Part shown: piece after piece, positions 31,901 through 40,164 of the stretch | Layout of the letters: every line of letters starts with the position of its first letter | Position numbering within the stretch: the first letter of the stretch is position 1 | Source: Shigella phage Sf22 | Strand: one strand, 5' to 3' | Sequence record: MF158045 | Length of the DNA: 64,000 nt | Notes under the pieces: generated by a model | Told to the model about the DNA's origin: nothing | Databases searched by the model: none | What the model saw: the letters and a program-made list of their open reading frames with translations, nothing else | Position numbers and translations under genes: made by a program

Positions 31901-32833
31901 GATACAACACGTTCTACTGTATTTGAAGTTGGTGATGAAACGTCTAATCATTTTTATTCTCAACGTAATAAAGATGGGAATATAGCGTTTAGCATTAATG
32001 GTACTGTAATGCCAATAAACATTAATGCTTCCGGTTTGATGAATGTTAATGGCGTTGCAACATTTGGTCGTTCAGTCACAGCCAATGGTGAATTCATTAG
32101 CAAGTCTGCAAATGCTTTCAGAGCAATTAGCGGTGATTACGGATTCTTTATTCGTAATGATGCTGCTAATACCTATTTTATGCTTACTGCATCCGGTGAT
32201 CAGACCGGTGGATTTAATGGATTACGTCCTTTGGCTATTAATAATGCATCTGGCCAAGTAACGATTGGTGAAGGCTTAATCATTGCCAAAGGTGCTACTA
32301 TAAATTCAGGTGGTTTAACTGTTAACTCGAGAATTCGTTCTCAGGGTACTAAAGCATCTGATTTATATACCCGTGCGCCAACATCTGATACTGTAGGATT
32401 CTGGTCAATCGATATTAACGATTCAGCCACTTATAACCAGTTCCCAGGTTATTTTAAAATGGTTGAAAAAACTAATGAAGTGACTGGGCTTCCATACTTA
32501 GAACGTGGCGAAGAAGTTAAATCTCCTGGTACACTGACTCAGTTTGGTAACACACTTGATTCGCTTTACCAAGATTGGATTACTTATCCAACGACGCCAG
32601 AAGCGCGTACCACTCGCTGGACACGTACATGGCAGAAAACCAAAAACTCTTGGTCAAGTTTTGTTCAGGTATTTGATGGAGGTAACCCTCCTCAACCATC
32701 TGATATCGGTGCTTTACCATCTGATAATGCTACAATGGGGAATCTTACTATTCGTGATTTCTTACGAATTGGTAATGTTCGCATTATTCCTGACCCAGTG
32801 AATAAAACGGTTAAATTTGAATGGGTTGAATAA
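28964..32833 (+). CDS. 34: Long tail fibre proximal subunit
   Basis: 1289 aa, the T4 gp34 length; repeated ~40-aa modules (TPKKL...RRG..EIATQ) typical of tail-fibre shafts; synteny. Confidence 0.95.
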   Translation: MAEIKRKFRAEDGLDAGGDKIINVALADRAVGTDGVNVDYLIQENTVQQYDPTRGYLKDFVIIYDNRFWAAINDIPKPAGAFNSGRWRALRTDANWITVSSGSYQLKSGEAISVNTAAGNDITFTLPSSPIDGDTIVLQDIGGKPGVNQVLIVAPVQSIVNFRGQQVRSVLMTHPKSQIVLIFSNRLWQMYVADYSREAVVVTPASLYQAQSNDFIVRRFTSAAPINVKLPRFANHGDIINFVDLDKLNPLYHTIVTTYDETTSVQEVGTHSIEGRTSIDGFLMFDDNEKLWRLFDGDSKARLRIITTNSNIRPNEEVMVFGANNGTTQTIELQLPTNISVGDTVKISMNYMRKGQTVKIKAAGEDKIASSVQLLQFPKRSEYPPEAEWVTVQELVFNGETNYVPVLQLAYIEDSDGKYWVVQQNVPTVERVDSLNNSTRARLGVIALATQAQANVDLENSPQKELAITPETLANRTATETRRGIARIATTAQVNQNTTFSFADDIIITPKKLNERTATETRRGVAEIATQQETNTGTDDTTIITPKKLQARQGSESLSGIVTFVSTAGATPASSRELNGTNVYNKNTNNLVVSPKALDQYKATPTQQGAVILAVESEVIAGQSQEGWANAVVTPETLHKKTSTDGRIGLIEIATQSEVNTGTDYTRAVTPKTLNDRRATESLSGIAEIATQVEFDAGVDDTRISTPLKIKTRFNSTDRTSVVALSGLVESGTLWDHYTLNILEANETQRGTLRVATQVEAAAGTLDNVLITPKKLLGTKSTESQEGVIKVATQSETVTGTSANTAVSPKNLKWIVQSEPTWAATTAIRGFVKTSSGSITFVGNDTVGSTQDLELYEKNSYAVSPYELNRVLANYLPLKAKAADTNLLDGLDSSQFIRRDIAQTVNGSLTLTQQTNLSAPLVSSSTATFGGSVSANSTLTISNTGTATRLIFEKGPQTGTNPAQTMTIRVWGNQFGGGSDTTRSTVFEVGDETSNHFYSQRNKDGNIAFSINGTVMPININASGLMNVNGVATFGRSVTANGEFISKSANAFRAISGDYGFFIRNDAANTYFMLTASGDQTGGFNGLRPLAINNASGQVTIGEGLIIAKGATINSGGLTVNSRIRSQGTKASDLYTRAPTSDTVGFWSIDINDSATYNQFPGYFKMVEKTNEVTGLPYLERGEEVKSPGTLTQFGNTLDSLYQDWITYPTTPEARTTRWTRTWQKTKNSWSSFVQVFDGGNPPQPSDIGALPSDNATMGNLTIRDFLRIGNVRIIPDPVNKTVKFEWVE

Positions 32834-32841
32834 GAGGTATT

Positions 32842-33957
32842 ATGGAAAAATTTATGGCAGAGTTTGGACAAGGATATGTCCAAACGCCATTTTTATCGGA
32901 AAGTAATTCAGTAAGATACAAAATAAGTATAGCGGGTTCTTGCCCGCTTTCTACAGCAGGACCATACGTTAAATTTCAGGATAATCCTGTAGGAAGTCAA
33001 ACATTTAGCGCAGGTCTTCATTTAAGAGTTTTTGACCCTTCCACCGGAGCATTAGTTGATAGTAAGTCATATGCTTTTTCGACTTCAAATGATACTACAT
33101 CAGCTGCTTTTGTTAGCTTCATGAATTCTTTGACAAATAATAGAATTGTTGCTATATTAACTAGTGGAAAGGTTAATTTTCCTCCTGAAGTAGTATCTTG
33201 GTTAAGAACCGCCGGAACGTCTGCTTTTCCATCTGATTCTATATTGTCAAGATTCGACGTATCATATGCTGCTTTTTACACTTCTTCTAAACGAGCTATT
33301 GCATTAGAACATGTTAAACTAAGTAATAGAAAAAGCACAGATGATTATCAAACTATTTTAGATGTAGTATTTGACAGTTTAGAAGATGTCGGAGCTACCG
33401 GGTTTCCAAGAAGAACGTATGAAAGCGTTGAGCAATTCATGTCAGCGGTTGGTGGAACTAATAACGAAATTGCGCGTCTACCAACTTCAGCTGCTATAAG
33501 TAAATTATCTGATTATAATTTAATTCCTGGAGATGTTCTTTATCTTAAAGCACAACTATATGCTGATGCTGATTTACTTGCTCTTGGAACTACGAATATA
33601 TCCATTCGATTTTATAATGCATCAAATGGATATATTTCCTCAACACAGGCTGAATTTACCGGGCAAGCTGGGTCATGGGAATTAAAGGAAGATTATGTAG
33701 TTGTTCCAGAAAACGCAGTAGGATTTACGATATACGCGCAGAGAACTGCTAAAGCTGGTCAAGGCGGAATGAGAAATTTAAGCTTTTCTGAAGTATCAAG
33801 AAACGGCGGTATTTCAAAACCTGCTGAATTTGGCGTCAATGGTATTCGTGTTAATTATATCTGTGAATCTGCTTCACCTCCGGATATAATGGTACTTCCT
33901 ACGCAAGCATCGTCTAAAACTGGTAAAGTGTTTGGACAAGAATTTAGAGAAGTATAA
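32842..33957 (+). CDS. 35: Long tail fibre hinge/knee connector
   Basis: 371 aa; position between 34 and 36. Confidence 0.9.
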   Translation: MEKFMAEFGQGYVQTPFLSESNSVRYKISIAGSCPLSTAGPYVKFQDNPVGSQTFSAGLHLRVFDPSTGALVDSKSYAFSTSNDTTSAAFVSFMNSLTNNRIVAILTSGKVNFPPEVVSWLRTAGTSAFPSDSILSRFDVSYAAFYTSSKRAIALEHVKLSNRKSTDDYQTILDVVFDSLEDVGATGFPRRTYESVEQFMSAVGGTNNEIARLPTSAAISKLSDYNLIPGDVLYLKAQLYADADLLALGTTNISIRFYNASNGYISSTQAEFTGQAGSWELKEDYVVVPENAVGFTIYAQRTAKAGQGGMRNLSFSEVSRNGGISKPAEFGVNGIRVNYICESASPPDIMVLPTQASSKTGKVFGQEFREV

Positions 33958-33960
33958 ATT

Positions 33961-33986
33961 GAGGGAGCCTTCGGGTTCCCTTTTTC
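33961..33986 (+). terminator. Rho-independent terminator after gene 35
   Basis: GGGAGCC-TTCG-GGTTCCC stem followed by TTTTTC. Confidence 0.55.
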
Positions 33987-33988
33987 TA

Positions 33989-33996
33989 TATAAATA
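33989..33996 (+). promoter_or_regulatory. Late promoter (TATAAATA) for gene 36
   Basis: Exact TATAAATA ~25 nt upstream of the gene 36 ATG. Confidence 0.6.
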
Positions 33997-34019
33997 CTAT
34001 TAAAATAAAGGGGCATACA

Positions 34020-34679
34020 ATGGCTGATTTAAAAGTAGGTTCAACAACTGGAGGCTCTGTCATTTGGCATCAAGGAAATTTTCCATTGAATCCAGCCGGT
34101 GACGATGTACTCTATAAATCATTTAAAATATATTCAGAATATAATAAACCACAAGCTGCTGATAACGATTTCGTTTCTAAAGCTAATGGTGGTACTTATT
34201 TAAATAAAGTAATTTTTAATAAAGGAATGACTGTTCCTGGCGCAGGGTCAGGTGACAATGGTATTTTTGCTGGTCCTGGTGATAATGCCACGTATGATAC
34301 TACAAATATGGATATTGTTTCGTGGTATGGTATTGGTTTTAAATCATCACAAGGATCAGCAGCCAGAACTGTGGTAATTAATACACGTAATGGCGATATT
34401 AGTACAAAAGGCGTTGTGTCGGCAACTGGTCAAGTAAGAAGTGATGCGGCTGCTCCTATAGCAGCGAATGACCTTACTAGAAAGGACTATGTTGATGGAG
34501 CAATAAATACTGTTACGGCAAATGCAAACTCTAGAGTGTTGCGTTCTGGCGACACTATGACAGGTAATTTAACGGCGCCAAACTTTTTCTCACAGAATCC
34601 AGCATCTCAACCTTCACATGTTCCACGATTTGACCAAATCGTGATTAAGGATTCTGTTCAAGATTTCGGCTATTATTAA
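34020..34679 (+). CDS. 36: Long tail fibre distal connector
   Basis: 219 aa; synteny. Confidence 0.9.
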   Translation: MADLKVGSTTGGSVIWHQGNFPLNPAGDDVLYKSFKIYSEYNKPQAADNDFVSKANGGTYLNKVIFNKGMTVPGAGSGDNGIFAGPGDNATYDTTNMDIVSWYGIGFKSSQGSAARTVVINTRNGDISTKGVVSATGQVRSDAAAPIAANDLTRKDYVDGAINTVTANANSRVLRSGDTMTGNLTAPNFFSQNPASQPSHVPRFDQIVIKDSVQDFGYY

Positions 34680-34687
34680 GAGGACTT

Positions 34688-37600
34688 ATGGCTACTTTAA
34701 AACAAATACAATTTAAAAGAAGCAAAACCGCAGGAGCACGTCCTGCTGCTTCAGTATTAGCCGAAGGTGAATTGGCTATAAACTTAAAAGATAGAACAAT
34801 TTTTACTAAAGATGATTCAGGAAATATCATTGATCTAGGTATTGCTAAAGGCGGTCAAATTGATGGAAATGTAACTATTGATGGAACTTTACGCGTCAAT
34901 GGACCAATAAACAACTTTGGAAATTTTTCTACAAGTGGTACTATTACGGCAAGTAATATTGTTTCTGCTACAGTATTCAGATCAACATCCGGTTCATTTT
35001 ATACAAGAGCAATAAATGATACTGCAAATGCCCATCTTTGGTTTGAAAATACGAATGGATCGGAGAGAGGGGTTTTATATTCAAAACCACAGTCTGAAAA
35101 TGAAGGCGTAATTACAATGCGCGTTCGCCAAGGAACCGCAGCAGGGGCTCAAAATTCAGAATTTCATTTCATTTCTACTGATGGCGGTATCTTCCAGGCA
35201 CGCAAATTAACTGCTTTAACTTCTATTAGTACACCAACTATTAGTGTTAATTTAATTAATCATGATTCTAAAGCCTTTGGACAATACGATTCACAATCAT
35301 TAGTTCAGTATGTTTATCCTGGAACCGGTGAAACAAATGGTGTAAACTATCTTCGTAAAGTTCGAGCTAAATCAGGTGGAACTATTTACCATGAAATTTG
35401 TACAGCTCAGACTGGGCTAGCTGATGAAGTTTCTTGGTGGACTGGTAATATACCGTTATTTAAACTATACGGTATTCGTAACGACGGTAGAATGATTATT
35501 CGCAATAGCTTGGCCATTGGTACTGTGACGGAAGGGTTTCCGTCAAGCGATTATGGAAATACTGGGGTAATGGGAGATAGGTATTTAGCTCTTGGCGATA
35601 ATGCTTCTGGACTTAAATGGGTTCGTACTGGCGTTATTGACTTAATGGCTAACGGTATTTCTGCGGCGTCTATTATTAATAATGGTATTAACAGTACTAA
35701 AAAATTAATGGTTGGTTATAGTCGAGATTCTGGTTCTACTTGGGATTTCCCAAATAACAACCAAGCAATGTTTACTGCGCGTACCGATGTTGATGGTAAT
35801 AATAACGGTGATGGTCAAACTCATATCGGTTATAGCAGTAATTCTAAAATGTATCACTATTTCCGTGGTACAGGTCGTATGTCCGTTAGTATGGGCGATG
35901 GACTTCTTGTTGAGCCTGGCATTTTAGATATTAAAACTGGTTCAAATTCATTAAATTTGCGTGCTGATGGTACTGTTGCATCTACTCAAGAAGTTAAGCT
36001 TAATAATGGGTTATTCTTTAATAGTAGTTCTTCTAACGCCGGTCTTAAATTTGGCGCTTCTTCTTCTATAAATGGAACTAAGACAATACAATGGAACGCA
36101 GGCACCCGCCCGGGTCAGAACAAAAGCTATGTGACCATGAAAGCATGGGGCAATGCATTTGAGGATAATACTAATAAAAACAGAGAAACTGTATTTGAAT
36201 TAGGCGATGGACAGGGTTGGCATTTTTATTCACAGCGCGTTGCTCCTGCAGCAGGTTCTACTGCCGGTTCTGTTGAATTTGCGATGGCCGGTAGTTTATT
36301 AACTTCTGGTTCTATTACAACAAGATCTTCCCTGAATGCTGATAATGGATTGTCTGTAAATGGACAAGCTAAATTTGGTGGAACGGCTGATGTATTAAGA
36401 ATTTGGAATGCTGAATACGGTGCTATTTTCCGTCGCTCAGAAAGTAATCTTTATATTATACCGACTCCTAAAGATGCTGGAGAATCGGGCGGTATAAGTA
36501 ATCTTAGACCATTGATAATAGAACTGAACACTGGCACAGTTAAAATGTCGCATGATGTTCATTTAGGAGATTCTGGATCTGGTACAGGACTTTTACAAGT
36601 AAGTAATAGTCTTAAAACTATTAAAATGATATGTCCAGTAACTATTAATGAACGCAATGCAGCGCTTACCCTGGATTCTCCTTCATCTTCTTCTGCTAAT
36701 TATTTACAGGGTTCTAAAGCTGGAACTAGATCATGGTACGTTGGTCTTGGCGGCGCTGGAAATGATTTATCTCTTTATAGCCAATCTTATGGACATGGTC
36801 TTGTTATAAGTGATAATTTCACGTCAATCACTAAGCCTCTTAAAGTCGGCAATGCCCAATTAGGAACTGACGGTAATATTACCAATGGTTCAGGAAACTT
36901 TGTCAACTTAAATACCACGTTAAATCGTAAAGTTAATTCTGGATTTATTACTTATGGAGCAACCTCTGGATGGTATAAGTTTGCAACAGTAACAATGCCA
37001 CAATCCACTTCGACGGTCTTCTTTAAAATAGTTGGAGGTTCTGGATTTAATAGCGGATTATTCACACAATGTAATATTGCTGAAATTGTTTTACGTACTA
37101 GTAATGAAAGACCTTCTGACTTAAATGCTGTATTATACACAAGAACAACTGGAATGTATAGCGCAGCATTTAGAAATATTGCAGTTAACAATGTCTCTGG
37201 AAATACATATGACATTTATGTTTATGCTGGAACATATTGTAATCAACTAGTTTGTGAATGGTCATGTACCGAAAATGCTACTGTTAGCGTTATTGGTATT
37301 AACTCATCTACCCAATCACCTGTGGATGCTCTTCCAGATACAGCAGTTGATGGGCAAGTTGCTAATGTTCTTAATAACTTGGTTGATCGTGGTAAAGTTA
37401 AGCGTTATGAAGCCGATTCTGAAATAGCTATTAATAGCCAAACCGGTATTCGTATCAGAAGCAATGCCGATAAAACTGGTTCTGTGGCTACAATGTTACG
37501 AAATGACGGTGGCAGTTTTTATATTCTGTTTACAGATAAAAATGCCACTGATGGCGCAGCAACTGTTAATGGTGATTGGAATAGTAAACGTCCTTTCGCA

Positions 37601-38377
37601 ATTAACTTAACAACCGGCGAAGTGATGATGAATAACGGCATAGCTGTTCGCAGCGCTGCTTTATTCTATAATAGCATAAACGTCAAAGATAATGGTTCTA
37701 TTAACTTTGATAAGTCCGGCGCTAACCCGAGAAACATGCGTATATTCCATGCAGGTGATGGCACTCGTGGTAATCGCATTGAAATTGCTGATGAAACAAA
37801 CTATATTGCTTACTTCCAAAAATTACCTGGTGGTCAAAATCAGGTTTCATTCAATAGTGCTACACTTTCTGGATTAACACAGTGTAATCAATTTGGTGTT
37901 AACACAACAAACGCACTTGGTGGAAACAGTATAACATTTGGTGATACTGATACTGGTATTAAGCAAAATGGCGATGGATTATTAGACATATATGCGAACA
38001 ACGTGCAAGTGTTCCGTTTCCAAAATGGTGATTTGTACTCATATAAAAATATAAATGCTCCAAACGTTTATATTCGTTCTGATATTCGTTTAAAATCTAA
38101 CTTCAAACCTATCGAAAATGCACTTGATAAAGTTGAAAAACTCAATGGTGTCATTTATGATAAAGCTGAATACATCGGTGGAGAGGCAATTGAAACTGAA
38201 GCGGGTATTGTAGCTCAAACGTTACAAGACGTTTTACCAGAAGCCGTCCGTGAAACAGAAGACAGCAAGGGTAATAAAATACTCACTGTTTCTTCTCAAG
38301 CCCAGATTGCTCTTCTGGTTGAAGCTGTGAAAACGCTTTCTTCTCGTGTAAAAGAACTTGAATCTAAACTTATGTAA
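34688..38377 (+). CDS. 37: Long tail fibre distal subunit with C-terminal intramolecular-chaperone-like domain
   Basis: 1229 aa; shares a WGN.F....TVFE.GD...HFYSQR motif with gp34; last ~105 aa (...YIRSDIRLKSNFKPIENALDKVEKLNGVIYDKAEY...) resemble a self-cleaving chaperone module. Confidence 0.9.
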   Translation: MATLKQIQFKRSKTAGARPAASVLAEGELAINLKDRTIFTKDDSGNIIDLGIAKGGQIDGNVTIDGTLRVNGPINNFGNFSTSGTITASNIVSATVFRSTSGSFYTRAINDTANAHLWFENTNGSERGVLYSKPQSENEGVITMRVRQGTAAGAQNSEFHFISTDGGIFQARKLTALTSISTPTISVNLINHDSKAFGQYDSQSLVQYVYPGTGETNGVNYLRKVRAKSGGTIYHEICTAQTGLADEVSWWTGNIPLFKLYGIRNDGRMIIRNSLAIGTVTEGFPSSDYGNTGVMGDRYLALGDNASGLKWVRTGVIDLMANGISAASIINNGINSTKKLMVGYSRDSGSTWDFPNNNQAMFTARTDVDGNNNGDGQTHIGYSSNSKMYHYFRGTGRMSVSMGDGLLVEPGILDIKTGSNSLNLRADGTVASTQEVKLNNGLFFNSSSSNAGLKFGASSSINGTKTIQWNAGTRPGQNKSYVTMKAWGNAFEDNTNKNRETVFELGDGQGWHFYSQRVAPAAGSTAGSVEFAMAGSLLTSGSITTRSSLNADNGLSVNGQAKFGGTADVLRIWNAEYGAIFRRSESNLYIIPTPKDAGESGGISNLRPLIIELNTGTVKMSHDVHLGDSGSGTGLLQVSNSLKTIKMICPVTINERNAALTLDSPSSSSANYLQGSKAGTRSWYVGLGGAGNDLSLYSQSYGHGLVISDNFTSITKPLKVGNAQLGTDGNITNGSGNFVNLNTTLNRKVNSGFITYGATSGWYKFATVTMPQSTSTVFFKIVGGSGFNSGLFTQCNIAEIVLRTSNERPSDLNAVLYTRTTGMYSAAFRNIAVNNVSGNTYDIYVYAGTYCNQLVCEWSCTENATVSVIGINSSTQSPVDALPDTAVDGQVANVLNNLVDRGKVKRYEADSEIAINSQTGIRIRSNADKTGSVATMLRNDGGSFYILFTDKNATDGAATVNGDWNSKRPFAINLTTGEVMMNNGIAVRSAALFYNSINVKDNGSINFDKSGANPRNMRIFHAGDGTRGNRIEIADETNYIAYFQKLPGGQNQVSFNSATLSGLTQCNQFGVNTTNALGGNSITFGDTDTGIKQNGDGLLDIYANNVQVFRFQNGDLYSYKNINAPNVYIRSDIRLKSNFKPIENALDKVEKLNGVIYDKAEYIGGEAIETEAGIVAQTLQDVLPEAVRETEDSKGNKILTVSSQAQIALLVEAVKTLSSRVKELESKLM

Positions 38378-38379
38378 AA

Positions 38380-38400
38380 GAGGGCTTCGGCCCTCTAAGG
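38380..38400 (+). terminator. Stem-loop AGAGGGC-TTCG-GCCCTCT after gene 37
   Basis: Perfect 7-bp stem; weak T-tract, so may be a stability element rather than a strong terminator. Confidence 0.4.
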
Positions 38401-38407
38401 ATTTTTA

Positions 38408-39202
38408 ATGGCAATTGTAGGTGTTCCTGGCTGGATTGGTGAATCTGCCGTGAATGAAACTGGACAGCGTTGGATGGATGCTGCGATGAGAGCAGTTCGT
38501 GTTTCAGTTCCTGGTTGGATGAGCTCAATGGCTGGGCAATCTAAAGAAGTATATTATAGCATTGGTGCTAGCAATTCTTACAATAAAGACACACTAATAA
38601 ATTATCTCAAATCTCAAGGTAGTACTCCTGTTGTTGTTACTATTACTGGTAACCTAGTTTCTTCATCTGCAAGGCAACCTTGCTTAGATTTTCCTAGCTC
38701 ATTAACTAATGCTTATGTAACGCTTATTATAAATGGCGGTGTAACAGTATATGGTCGCGGAGGACGCGGCGCGCAAGCGGGAAACCAGGCGGGTGAAGCT
38801 GGTGGTACTGCAATTAACAATGGTATAGGTACTCGTCTACGAATCACTAACAATGGAGCAATCGCTGGCGGTGGTGGTGGTGGCGGCGCCCAATCAACTG
38901 ATAATGGATGGGGAGGTAAATATGTTTCTGGCGGCGGCGGCGGACGTCCTTTCGGAGCTGGTGGTAATAATGGAGCAAAAGCTCCGGGTGCATCAGCATC
39001 TTTAACATCTCCAGGCGCAGGTGGAAAAATGTATTCCGGCGTTGGATACTACGGTGGTGACGGTGGTAATGTTGGTGAACGAGGTAAGGATGCGGTTAGA
39101 TTGAACGGCTATTCGAACTCACCTGGCGCAGCAGGTAAAGCTGTTACTGGTAACGCACCAACATGGACTAAGGTTGGTACAATATATGGTTCAAGAGTAT
39201 AA
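38408..39202 (+). CDS. 38: Receptor-recognising adhesin (T2-type gp38) with glycine-rich motifs
   Basis: 264 aa; several poly-Gly blocks (GGGGGGG, GGGGG) separating variable segments; position after 37. Confidence 0.85.
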   Translation: MAIVGVPGWIGESAVNETGQRWMDAAMRAVRVSVPGWMSSMAGQSKEVYYSIGASNSYNKDTLINYLKSQGSTPVVVTITGNLVSSSARQPCLDFPSSLTNAYVTLIINGGVTVYGRGGRGAQAGNQAGEAGGTAINNGIGTRLRITNNGAIAGGGGGGGAQSTDNGWGGKYVSGGGGGRPFGAGGNNGAKAPGASASLTSPGAGGKMYSGVGYYGGDGGNVGERGKDAVRLNGYSNSPGAAGKAVTGNAPTWTKVGTIYGSRV

Positions 39203-39891: not shown

Positions 39892-40164
39892 TTATTTGTT
39901 CGTATACATCTCTAGATATCGATATACACCCTCAAAACCCTCGTTGAATTCGTCGATGAGGGTTTTCTTATCTTCTTGAGTTAATTCAGAAACAATTTTA
40001 CGGAATGAATTCTGATTTAATTTTCTACCTTCATGCGTTACTCCAATCTCATTCAGAAATGCAATAAAATTAGCACGATTCTCAACAATATCTTCTCTGG
40101 AAAATTTAATCAAAATAGACGCAACAGTAATAATTTCACGAACTGTATCAATGTTTTTATTCAT
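39892..40164 (-). CDS. asiA: Anti-sigma70 factor
   Basis: 90 aa, MNKNIDTVREIITVASILIKFSREDIVENRANFIAFLNEIGVTHEGRKLNQNSF... matches recalled T4 AsiA. Confidence 0.93.
   Translation of the reverse strand: MNKNIDTVREIITVASILIKFSREDIVENRANFIAFLNEIGVTHEGRKLNQNSFRKIVSELTQEDKKTLIDEFNEGFEGVYRYLEMYTNK

Follow-up and report, generated by a model that had tools for sequence, protein, structure and literature searches.

The last 99 residues of gp37 (residues 1131–1229), the distal subunit of the long tail fibre of Shigella phage Sf22, very probably constitute a C-terminal intramolecular chaperone of the peptidase S74 family, which would autocleave at the Arg1130-Ser1131 bond after folding of the trimer and free the fibre tip for gp38 (probability of about 0.93). 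The DNA analysed, called here the window, is a stretch of 64,000 nucleotides from this phage (record MF158045), in which the whole predicted released module occupies positions 38078 to 38374 on the + strand, as delineated by a custom HMM and by identity with T2. What the sequence itself shows is that the domain belongs to this family, carries the catalytic residues, sits at the C-terminus and is nearly identical to its counterpart in T2 gp37, and that a gp38 partner is encoded. A self-cleaving chaperone tail of T2-type gp37 is already textbook knowledge; the present analysis confirms the observation made in an earlier note on this DNA and supports its interpretation, and its value lies in annotation and engineering, not in discovery.

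Gene 37 (34688–38377, + strand) encodes 1229 amino acids followed by a stop codon (38375–38377). It was assigned from the list of open reading frames, from PHROG 1699 ('long tail fiber protein distal subunit'), which matches gp37 over its full length (E 0), and from the Pfam domains gp37_trimer and Gp34_trimer, both located in the shaft. Its neighbours are gp35, gp36 (PF03903) and gp38 (PF05268 and PF21721). The window is part of a Tequatrovirus genome, with 97.5% identity to phage Kha5h over positions 40000–62000. The fibre locus is made of mosaic pieces matching hundreds of T-even phages, and none of the phage records reached at least 80% coverage of a g37-g38 query.

The earlier note had proposed that the tail of gp37 resembles the C-terminal chaperone modules of other phage fibres and spikes, and had suggested an HMM search against the peptidase S74 family. 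The peptide it singled out lies in frame at the C-terminus, and the search returned a full-profile match to PF13884 (Peptidase_S74, 'chaperone of endosialidase'), with 56.5 bits where the curated gathering score is 22 (E 3.4e-15), corresponding to a core of residues 1131–1188 (38078–38251, + strand; profile positions 1–58 of 58). Scored by the same procedure, two founding members of the family, both studied experimentally, came lower: T5 pb1 reached 39.6 bits and the K1F endosialidase 39.3 bits. In a six-frame translation of the window, a custom HMM derived from 163 relatives gave the gp37 match as the sole one (E 5.8e-50; residues 1125–1241 of the frame fragment), and no second S74 domain was detected. 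When the last 135 residues of gp37 were searched with HMMER against 1.84 billion cluster representatives, 28,967 proteins were recovered at E <= 0.001; among the best 160 of these matches, the domain match ended at most 15 amino acids from the protein C-terminus in 149, and in gp37 itself the S74 domain extends to the final residue. In the phage genome collection, a relative was present in 1724 records, at least 99% identical in 66 of them. Single-sequence phmmer with the Sf22 domain did not reach T5 pb1 or K1F endoNF, and the connection to these two proteins was made through the PF13884 profile register.

Comparison with the sequences of solved structures gave S16 gp37 (6f45_A) as the best match (E 6.4e-13), in an alignment that sets the SDRRIKK of S16 opposite the SDIRLKS of Sf22, and also retrieved the MyRF auto-processing domain (7dc3, E 0.0016). 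The last 135 residues of gp37 were modelled as a monomer with AlphaFold2, from a shallow alignment of 10 sequences (word-indexed protein search, mostly short matches), and the confidence of the model is low (mean pLDDT 56.5; 52–85 across the domain). In its predicted secondary structure, a short helix is followed by a beta-hairpin, another helix, a pair of strands and finally a long C-terminal helix. This last helix (residues 1203–1228; 38294–38371, + strand; positions 109–134 of the 135-residue fragment, pLDDT 74–85) would form the core of a trimeric coiled coil, and a central trimeric coiled coil is found in the T5 and K1F chaperones (PMC4690869). Such a fold would be consistent with that of the T5 chaperone, in which a mixed alpha/beta part accompanies a central helix. 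With this weak monomer as query, Foldseek against the PDB gave only two matches at E < 0.1, namely 7dc3, the MyRF ICA (E 9e-5), and 3gw6, the 'Intramolecular Chaperone' of K1F (E 6e-3, probability 0.93), which may be taken as supporting the S74 identity without being decisive.

A similarity arising by chance or from composition, such as that of a generic coiled-coil tail, would fit a C-terminal helix that by itself is generic, the low confidence of the AlphaFold2 model and the lack of any NCBIfam family matching gp37 or gp38, in a library that is weak on phage fibres. Nevertheless, the Pfam match spans the full profile, including the non-helical N-terminal half that carries the catalytic motif; the family is represented by the many thousands of cluster representatives cited above, the best 160 being mostly C-terminal; and sequence or fold matches in the PDB point to S16 gp37, to the MyRF ICA and to the endoNF chaperone. 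The Pfam and PDB matches, the cluster-representative search and the profile register refute this explanation, to which we attach practically no weight, and the resemblance of the gp37 tail to the S74 family lies well beyond chance.

The chaperone assignment also predicts where the chain is cut. The motif SDxRxK occurs once in gp37, as S1131-D-I-R-L-K1136 (38078–38095, + strand), in which by homology Ser1131 would be the nucleophile and the lysine at +5 its activating base. Ser1131 corresponds to position 1 of the PF13884 profile, which places the predicted scissile bond between Arg1130 and Ser1131 (38075–38080, + strand) and is occupied by Ser1243 in T2, Ser1264 in T5 pb1 and Ser911 in K1F, the last register being counted back from profile position 5 (residue 915). 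The conserved serine invoked by the earlier note was found, with its lysine at +5 and in register with the validated T5 and K1F serines. Among the 163 aligned relatives, the serine is retained in 159, the aspartate in 160 and the lysine in 161; G1173, A1176, Q1177 and P1184 are other near-invariant positions of this alignment.

In T5 pb1, the 133 residues at the C-terminus make up an intramolecular chaperone, a trimer that is auto-proteolysed once correctly folded (PMC4690869). The Thr1263-Ser1264 bond is cut, the serine is activated by Lys1269, and the S1264A substitution blocks cleavage (PMC4690869). In T5 and K1F, an arginine from the neighbouring subunit (Arg1250 in T5) forms the oxyanion hole and acts as a 'folding sensor' that ties cleavage to the correct trimer (PMC4690869).

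These data bear on the possibility that the S74-like domain only serves trimerisation and folding and is cut off by another protease, of the host or of the phage, with no autoproteolysis. This would be in line with the classical observation on T2, for which PMC3157838 speaks only of gp37 being 'proteolytically cleaved'. In addition, the trans-acting arginine sensor of T5 and K1F was not located in gp37, whose pre-cleavage strand could not be aligned reliably with theirs; R1115 and R1130 are candidates for it. However, gp37 has kept an intact Ser/Lys pair, which falls in the register of Ser1264/Lys1269 of T5 and of Ser911 of K1F; its retention in about 98% of the 163 relatives is unexpected if the residues are non-catalytic; loss of the serine abolishes cleavage in T5 (PMC4690869); and S16 gp37 is described as autocleaving (PMC7917993 and PMC7289586). 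An external protease thus seems improbable, and autoproteolysis at Ser1131 is preferred.

The position of Ser1131 also defines the limits of the module. The earlier note had placed its start at position 38060, which is codon 1125 (Pro) of gp37, and had given it about 105 residues. The location at the C-terminus was right, and the start and length were not: the module begins at Ser1131 (position 38078) and comprises 99 residues, because the six residues PNVYIR, by homology, belong to the mature tip. The stretch NAPNVYIR (N1123-R1130; 38054–38077, + strand) is predicted, again by homology, to form the final strand of mature gp37, to supply its new C-terminus and to constitute the docking surface for gp38. 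In the alignment with S16 gp37 (PDB 6F45) it faces a segment ending in RDLNVS. A cleavage at DVYIR^SDGRLKI has been predicted in the fPS phages, also of the Tequatrovirus genus, in which DVYIR is the strand that makes the gp38 docking tip once cleaved (PMC7917993). This sequence is nearly that of Sf22, NVYIR^SDIRLKS. The residue preceding the scissile bond varies among the proteins compared, being Arg in Sf22, Ser in S16 and Thr in T5.

The closest experimentally described relative is T2, whose genome (AP018813) was used for comparison. The last 167 residues of gp37 are 95% identical in the two phages, and the last 107, which include NAPNVYIR|SDIRLK and the entire chaperone, differ by a single substitution (S1219 in Sf22, Ala in T2), the chaperone region being 99% identical. 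According to PMC3157838, which cites Drexler, Riede & Henning 1986, gp37 of T2 and T6 is cleaved C-terminally and then capped by gp38; the link drawn in the earlier note to the processing of T2-type gp37 is a direct one. The domain might still stay uncleaved on the mature Sf22 fibre as a structural element, cleavage in Sf22 itself being deduced from homologues. Against this stand the intact catalytic residues and the processing reported for a T2 region that is 99% identical (PMC3157838); moreover, by homology with S16, an uncleaved domain would cover the face needed by gp38 (PMC7917993), and a T2-type gp38 is encoded immediately downstream. Retention of the domain is therefore very unlikely, and its removal from the fibre is the reading adopted below.

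Outside the C-terminal region the similarity to T2 is uneven. Sf22 gp37 is 112 amino acids shorter than T2 gp37, the two align in blocks that are 53–95% identical, and conservation is confined to residues 1–63 and to the region from residue 1063 to the end, whereas the shaft (approximately residues 64–1060) is about 50% identical or cannot be aligned. The same pattern was seen at the DNA level: positions 32040–34876, which comprise g35, g36 and the start of g37, are 91% identical to T2, and identity is 89% from position 37892 on, whereas the shaft of about 3 kb in between (34876–37892) is 68% identical or without a blastn match. Judged from these alignments, gp37 is a mosaic relative to T2, with apparent recombination boundaries flanking the conserved cassette formed by the chaperone and the gp38-attachment region.

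Gene 38 (38408–39202, + strand) starts 31 nucleotides past gene 37 and encodes a T2-type tail-fibre adhesin, as indicated by the Pfam families GP38 (E 8e-73) and Gp38_N (E 8.3e-18), the latter being an attachment domain formed by residues 1–42. Its N-terminal 46 residues match those of T2 gp38 at 45 positions, and the glycine-rich, hypervariable receptor-binding remainder is only about 50% identical, with indels; the receptor specificity of Sf22 probably differs from that of T2. The C-terminus of gp37 and the N-terminus of gp38 are thus both of the T2 subtype in proteins that have diverged elsewhere. Such co-conservation of the two ends, as lock and key, is described in PMC3157838, and the Sf22 pattern is an instance of it. 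The presence of gp38 downstream together with the matched subtypes characterises the Sf22 fibre as T2-type, that is, capped by a gp38 adhesin.

The S16 fibre is the best solved-structure match and offers a model for what cleavage would achieve. In PMC7917993, which cites Dunne et al. 2018, autocleavage of the S16 gp37 chaperone is reported at S^SDRRIKK, with exposure of the gp38 docking face, and removal of C-terminal chaperones through autoproteolysis is described for both the S16 and T5 fibres (PMC7289586). S16 gp37 (PDB 6F45) resembles Sf22 gp37 in having a T2-type tip, the SDxRxK motif, a chaperone and a gp38 adhesin that docks after autocleavage, the last feature being extended to Sf22 by homology. 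The two proteins differ upstream of the motif, where similarity is only distant (DLNVS^SDRRIKK in S16, NVYIR^SDIRLKS in Sf22), and in the length of the chaperone, 113 residues in S16 versus 99 in Sf22. The proposal in the earlier note that the docking tip for gp38 arises through cleavage agrees with what is reported for S16.

The other members of the family are more remote. T5 pb1 shares with Sf22 the Pfam family and its register, the SD-x-R-L-K motif (SDARLK) and the C-terminal location; however, its chaperone is 133 residues long, bears long beta-hairpin 'tentacles' and serves a receptor-binding 'bullet' domain, whereas cleavage in Sf22 would bare a docking face for a separate adhesin. The K1F endosialidase (PDB 3GW6), founding member of family S74 in MEROPS and Pfam, has PF13884 in common with Sf22 and the same spacing of the catalytic pair (Ser911/Lys916 and Ser1131/Lys1136), but carries the motif as S-N-G-E-R-K in a domain of 154 residues with a very diverged sequence, borne on an enzymatically active tailspike. 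The ICA (intramolecular chaperone auto-processing) domain of MYRF (PDB 7DC3) is a eukaryotic homologue that differs by its location inside a membrane-bound transcription factor, where cleavage frees the N-terminal factor outside any fibre context.

For Sf22 itself, we infer from these homologues the cleavage, the exact bond, its dependence on folding and the docking of gp38, and the following sequence of events can be proposed. Three attached copies of the chaperone would associate through their C-terminal helices, and the beta-structured distal fibre would then trimerise and fold in register, nucleated at its C-terminal end. Correct folding of the tip would be followed by attack of Ser1131, with Lys1136 as its activator, on the Arg1130-Ser1131 bond of every chain; the chaperone, a trimer of 99-residue chains, would leave, and gp38 would then bind the exposed …NAPNVYIR face. 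It can be speculated that in T2-type fibres release of the chaperone is gated by gp38 docking or by the general chaperone gp57A, or that the 99-residue trimer, once freed, serves another purpose inside the infected cell, as the signalling cleavage of MYRF might suggest by analogy; we hold either idea to be a long shot, and the sequence points to neither.

Several practical consequences would follow, all of which are already established for T2, S16 and related phages. When recombinant fibres, gp37/gp38 host-range chimeras or structural models are designed, the chaperone should be kept in the construct and expected to be absent from the product. The mature end of gp37 is to be set at about Arg1130, and the docking face for gp38 taken to be the cleaved tip. 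This arrangement would explain why the C-terminus of gp37 and the N-terminus of gp38 are conserved as a matched cassette amid a variable remainder.

The junction between the two genes contains a predicted hairpin, AGAGGGC-UUCG-GCCCUCU (38379–38396, + strand; RNA folding, -13.4 kcal/mol, z -2.3), with a stem of 7 bp and a UUCG tetraloop. It lies directly 3' of the g37 stop codon and 5' of the ribosome-binding site of g38. Phage K3 (record X04747) bears at the homologous site the annotation 'stem-loop structure; pot. transcription terminator'. In Sf22, the U-run sits seven nucleotides past the hairpin and is not adjacent to it, which is why the hairpin may be an element of RNA stability or attenuation more than a strong terminator. 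A small antisense ORF overlapping this junction (38370–38528) was without support and was dropped.

Two database entries related to the gp37 tail were encountered in atypical contexts. A protein of 114 amino acids, 98% identical to the last 114 residues of gp37 and beginning with MYSYKNIN, is called separately on a contig of 168,860 bp labelled Escherichia coli; it probably comes from a phage genome deposited under a bacterial name, or from a g37 that has been split. Another protein, of 176 amino acids, matches 35% of the query at 96% identity and carries PF01594 on a contig of 885 bp, which may be a chimeric assembly.

Elsewhere in the fibre locus, the hinge connector gp35 (ORF 32842–33957) gave a Pfam match to ILEI (interleukin-like EMT inducer / FAM3-type) over residues 58–126 (window positions 33013–33219; E 1e-8, 36 bits versus a cut-off of 27). 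A 'GG' domain common to phage gp35 and proteins of the FAM3/POMGnT1 type has been described earlier. Within gene 37, internal repeats (35570–35698 with 37880–37999, and 36422–36565 with 37493–37663) were noticed through BLASTP against T2 gp37, in which separate portions of the fibre matched one another weakly (E 4e-4 to 0.5). The repeated motifs are of the type G-D-x-x-T/S-G-L/I-K…G-x-x-D-L/I-x-A-N and RNDGGSFYIL…RPFAINL…G-V-M. These cross-matches indicate that the shaft of gp37 contains repeated modules.
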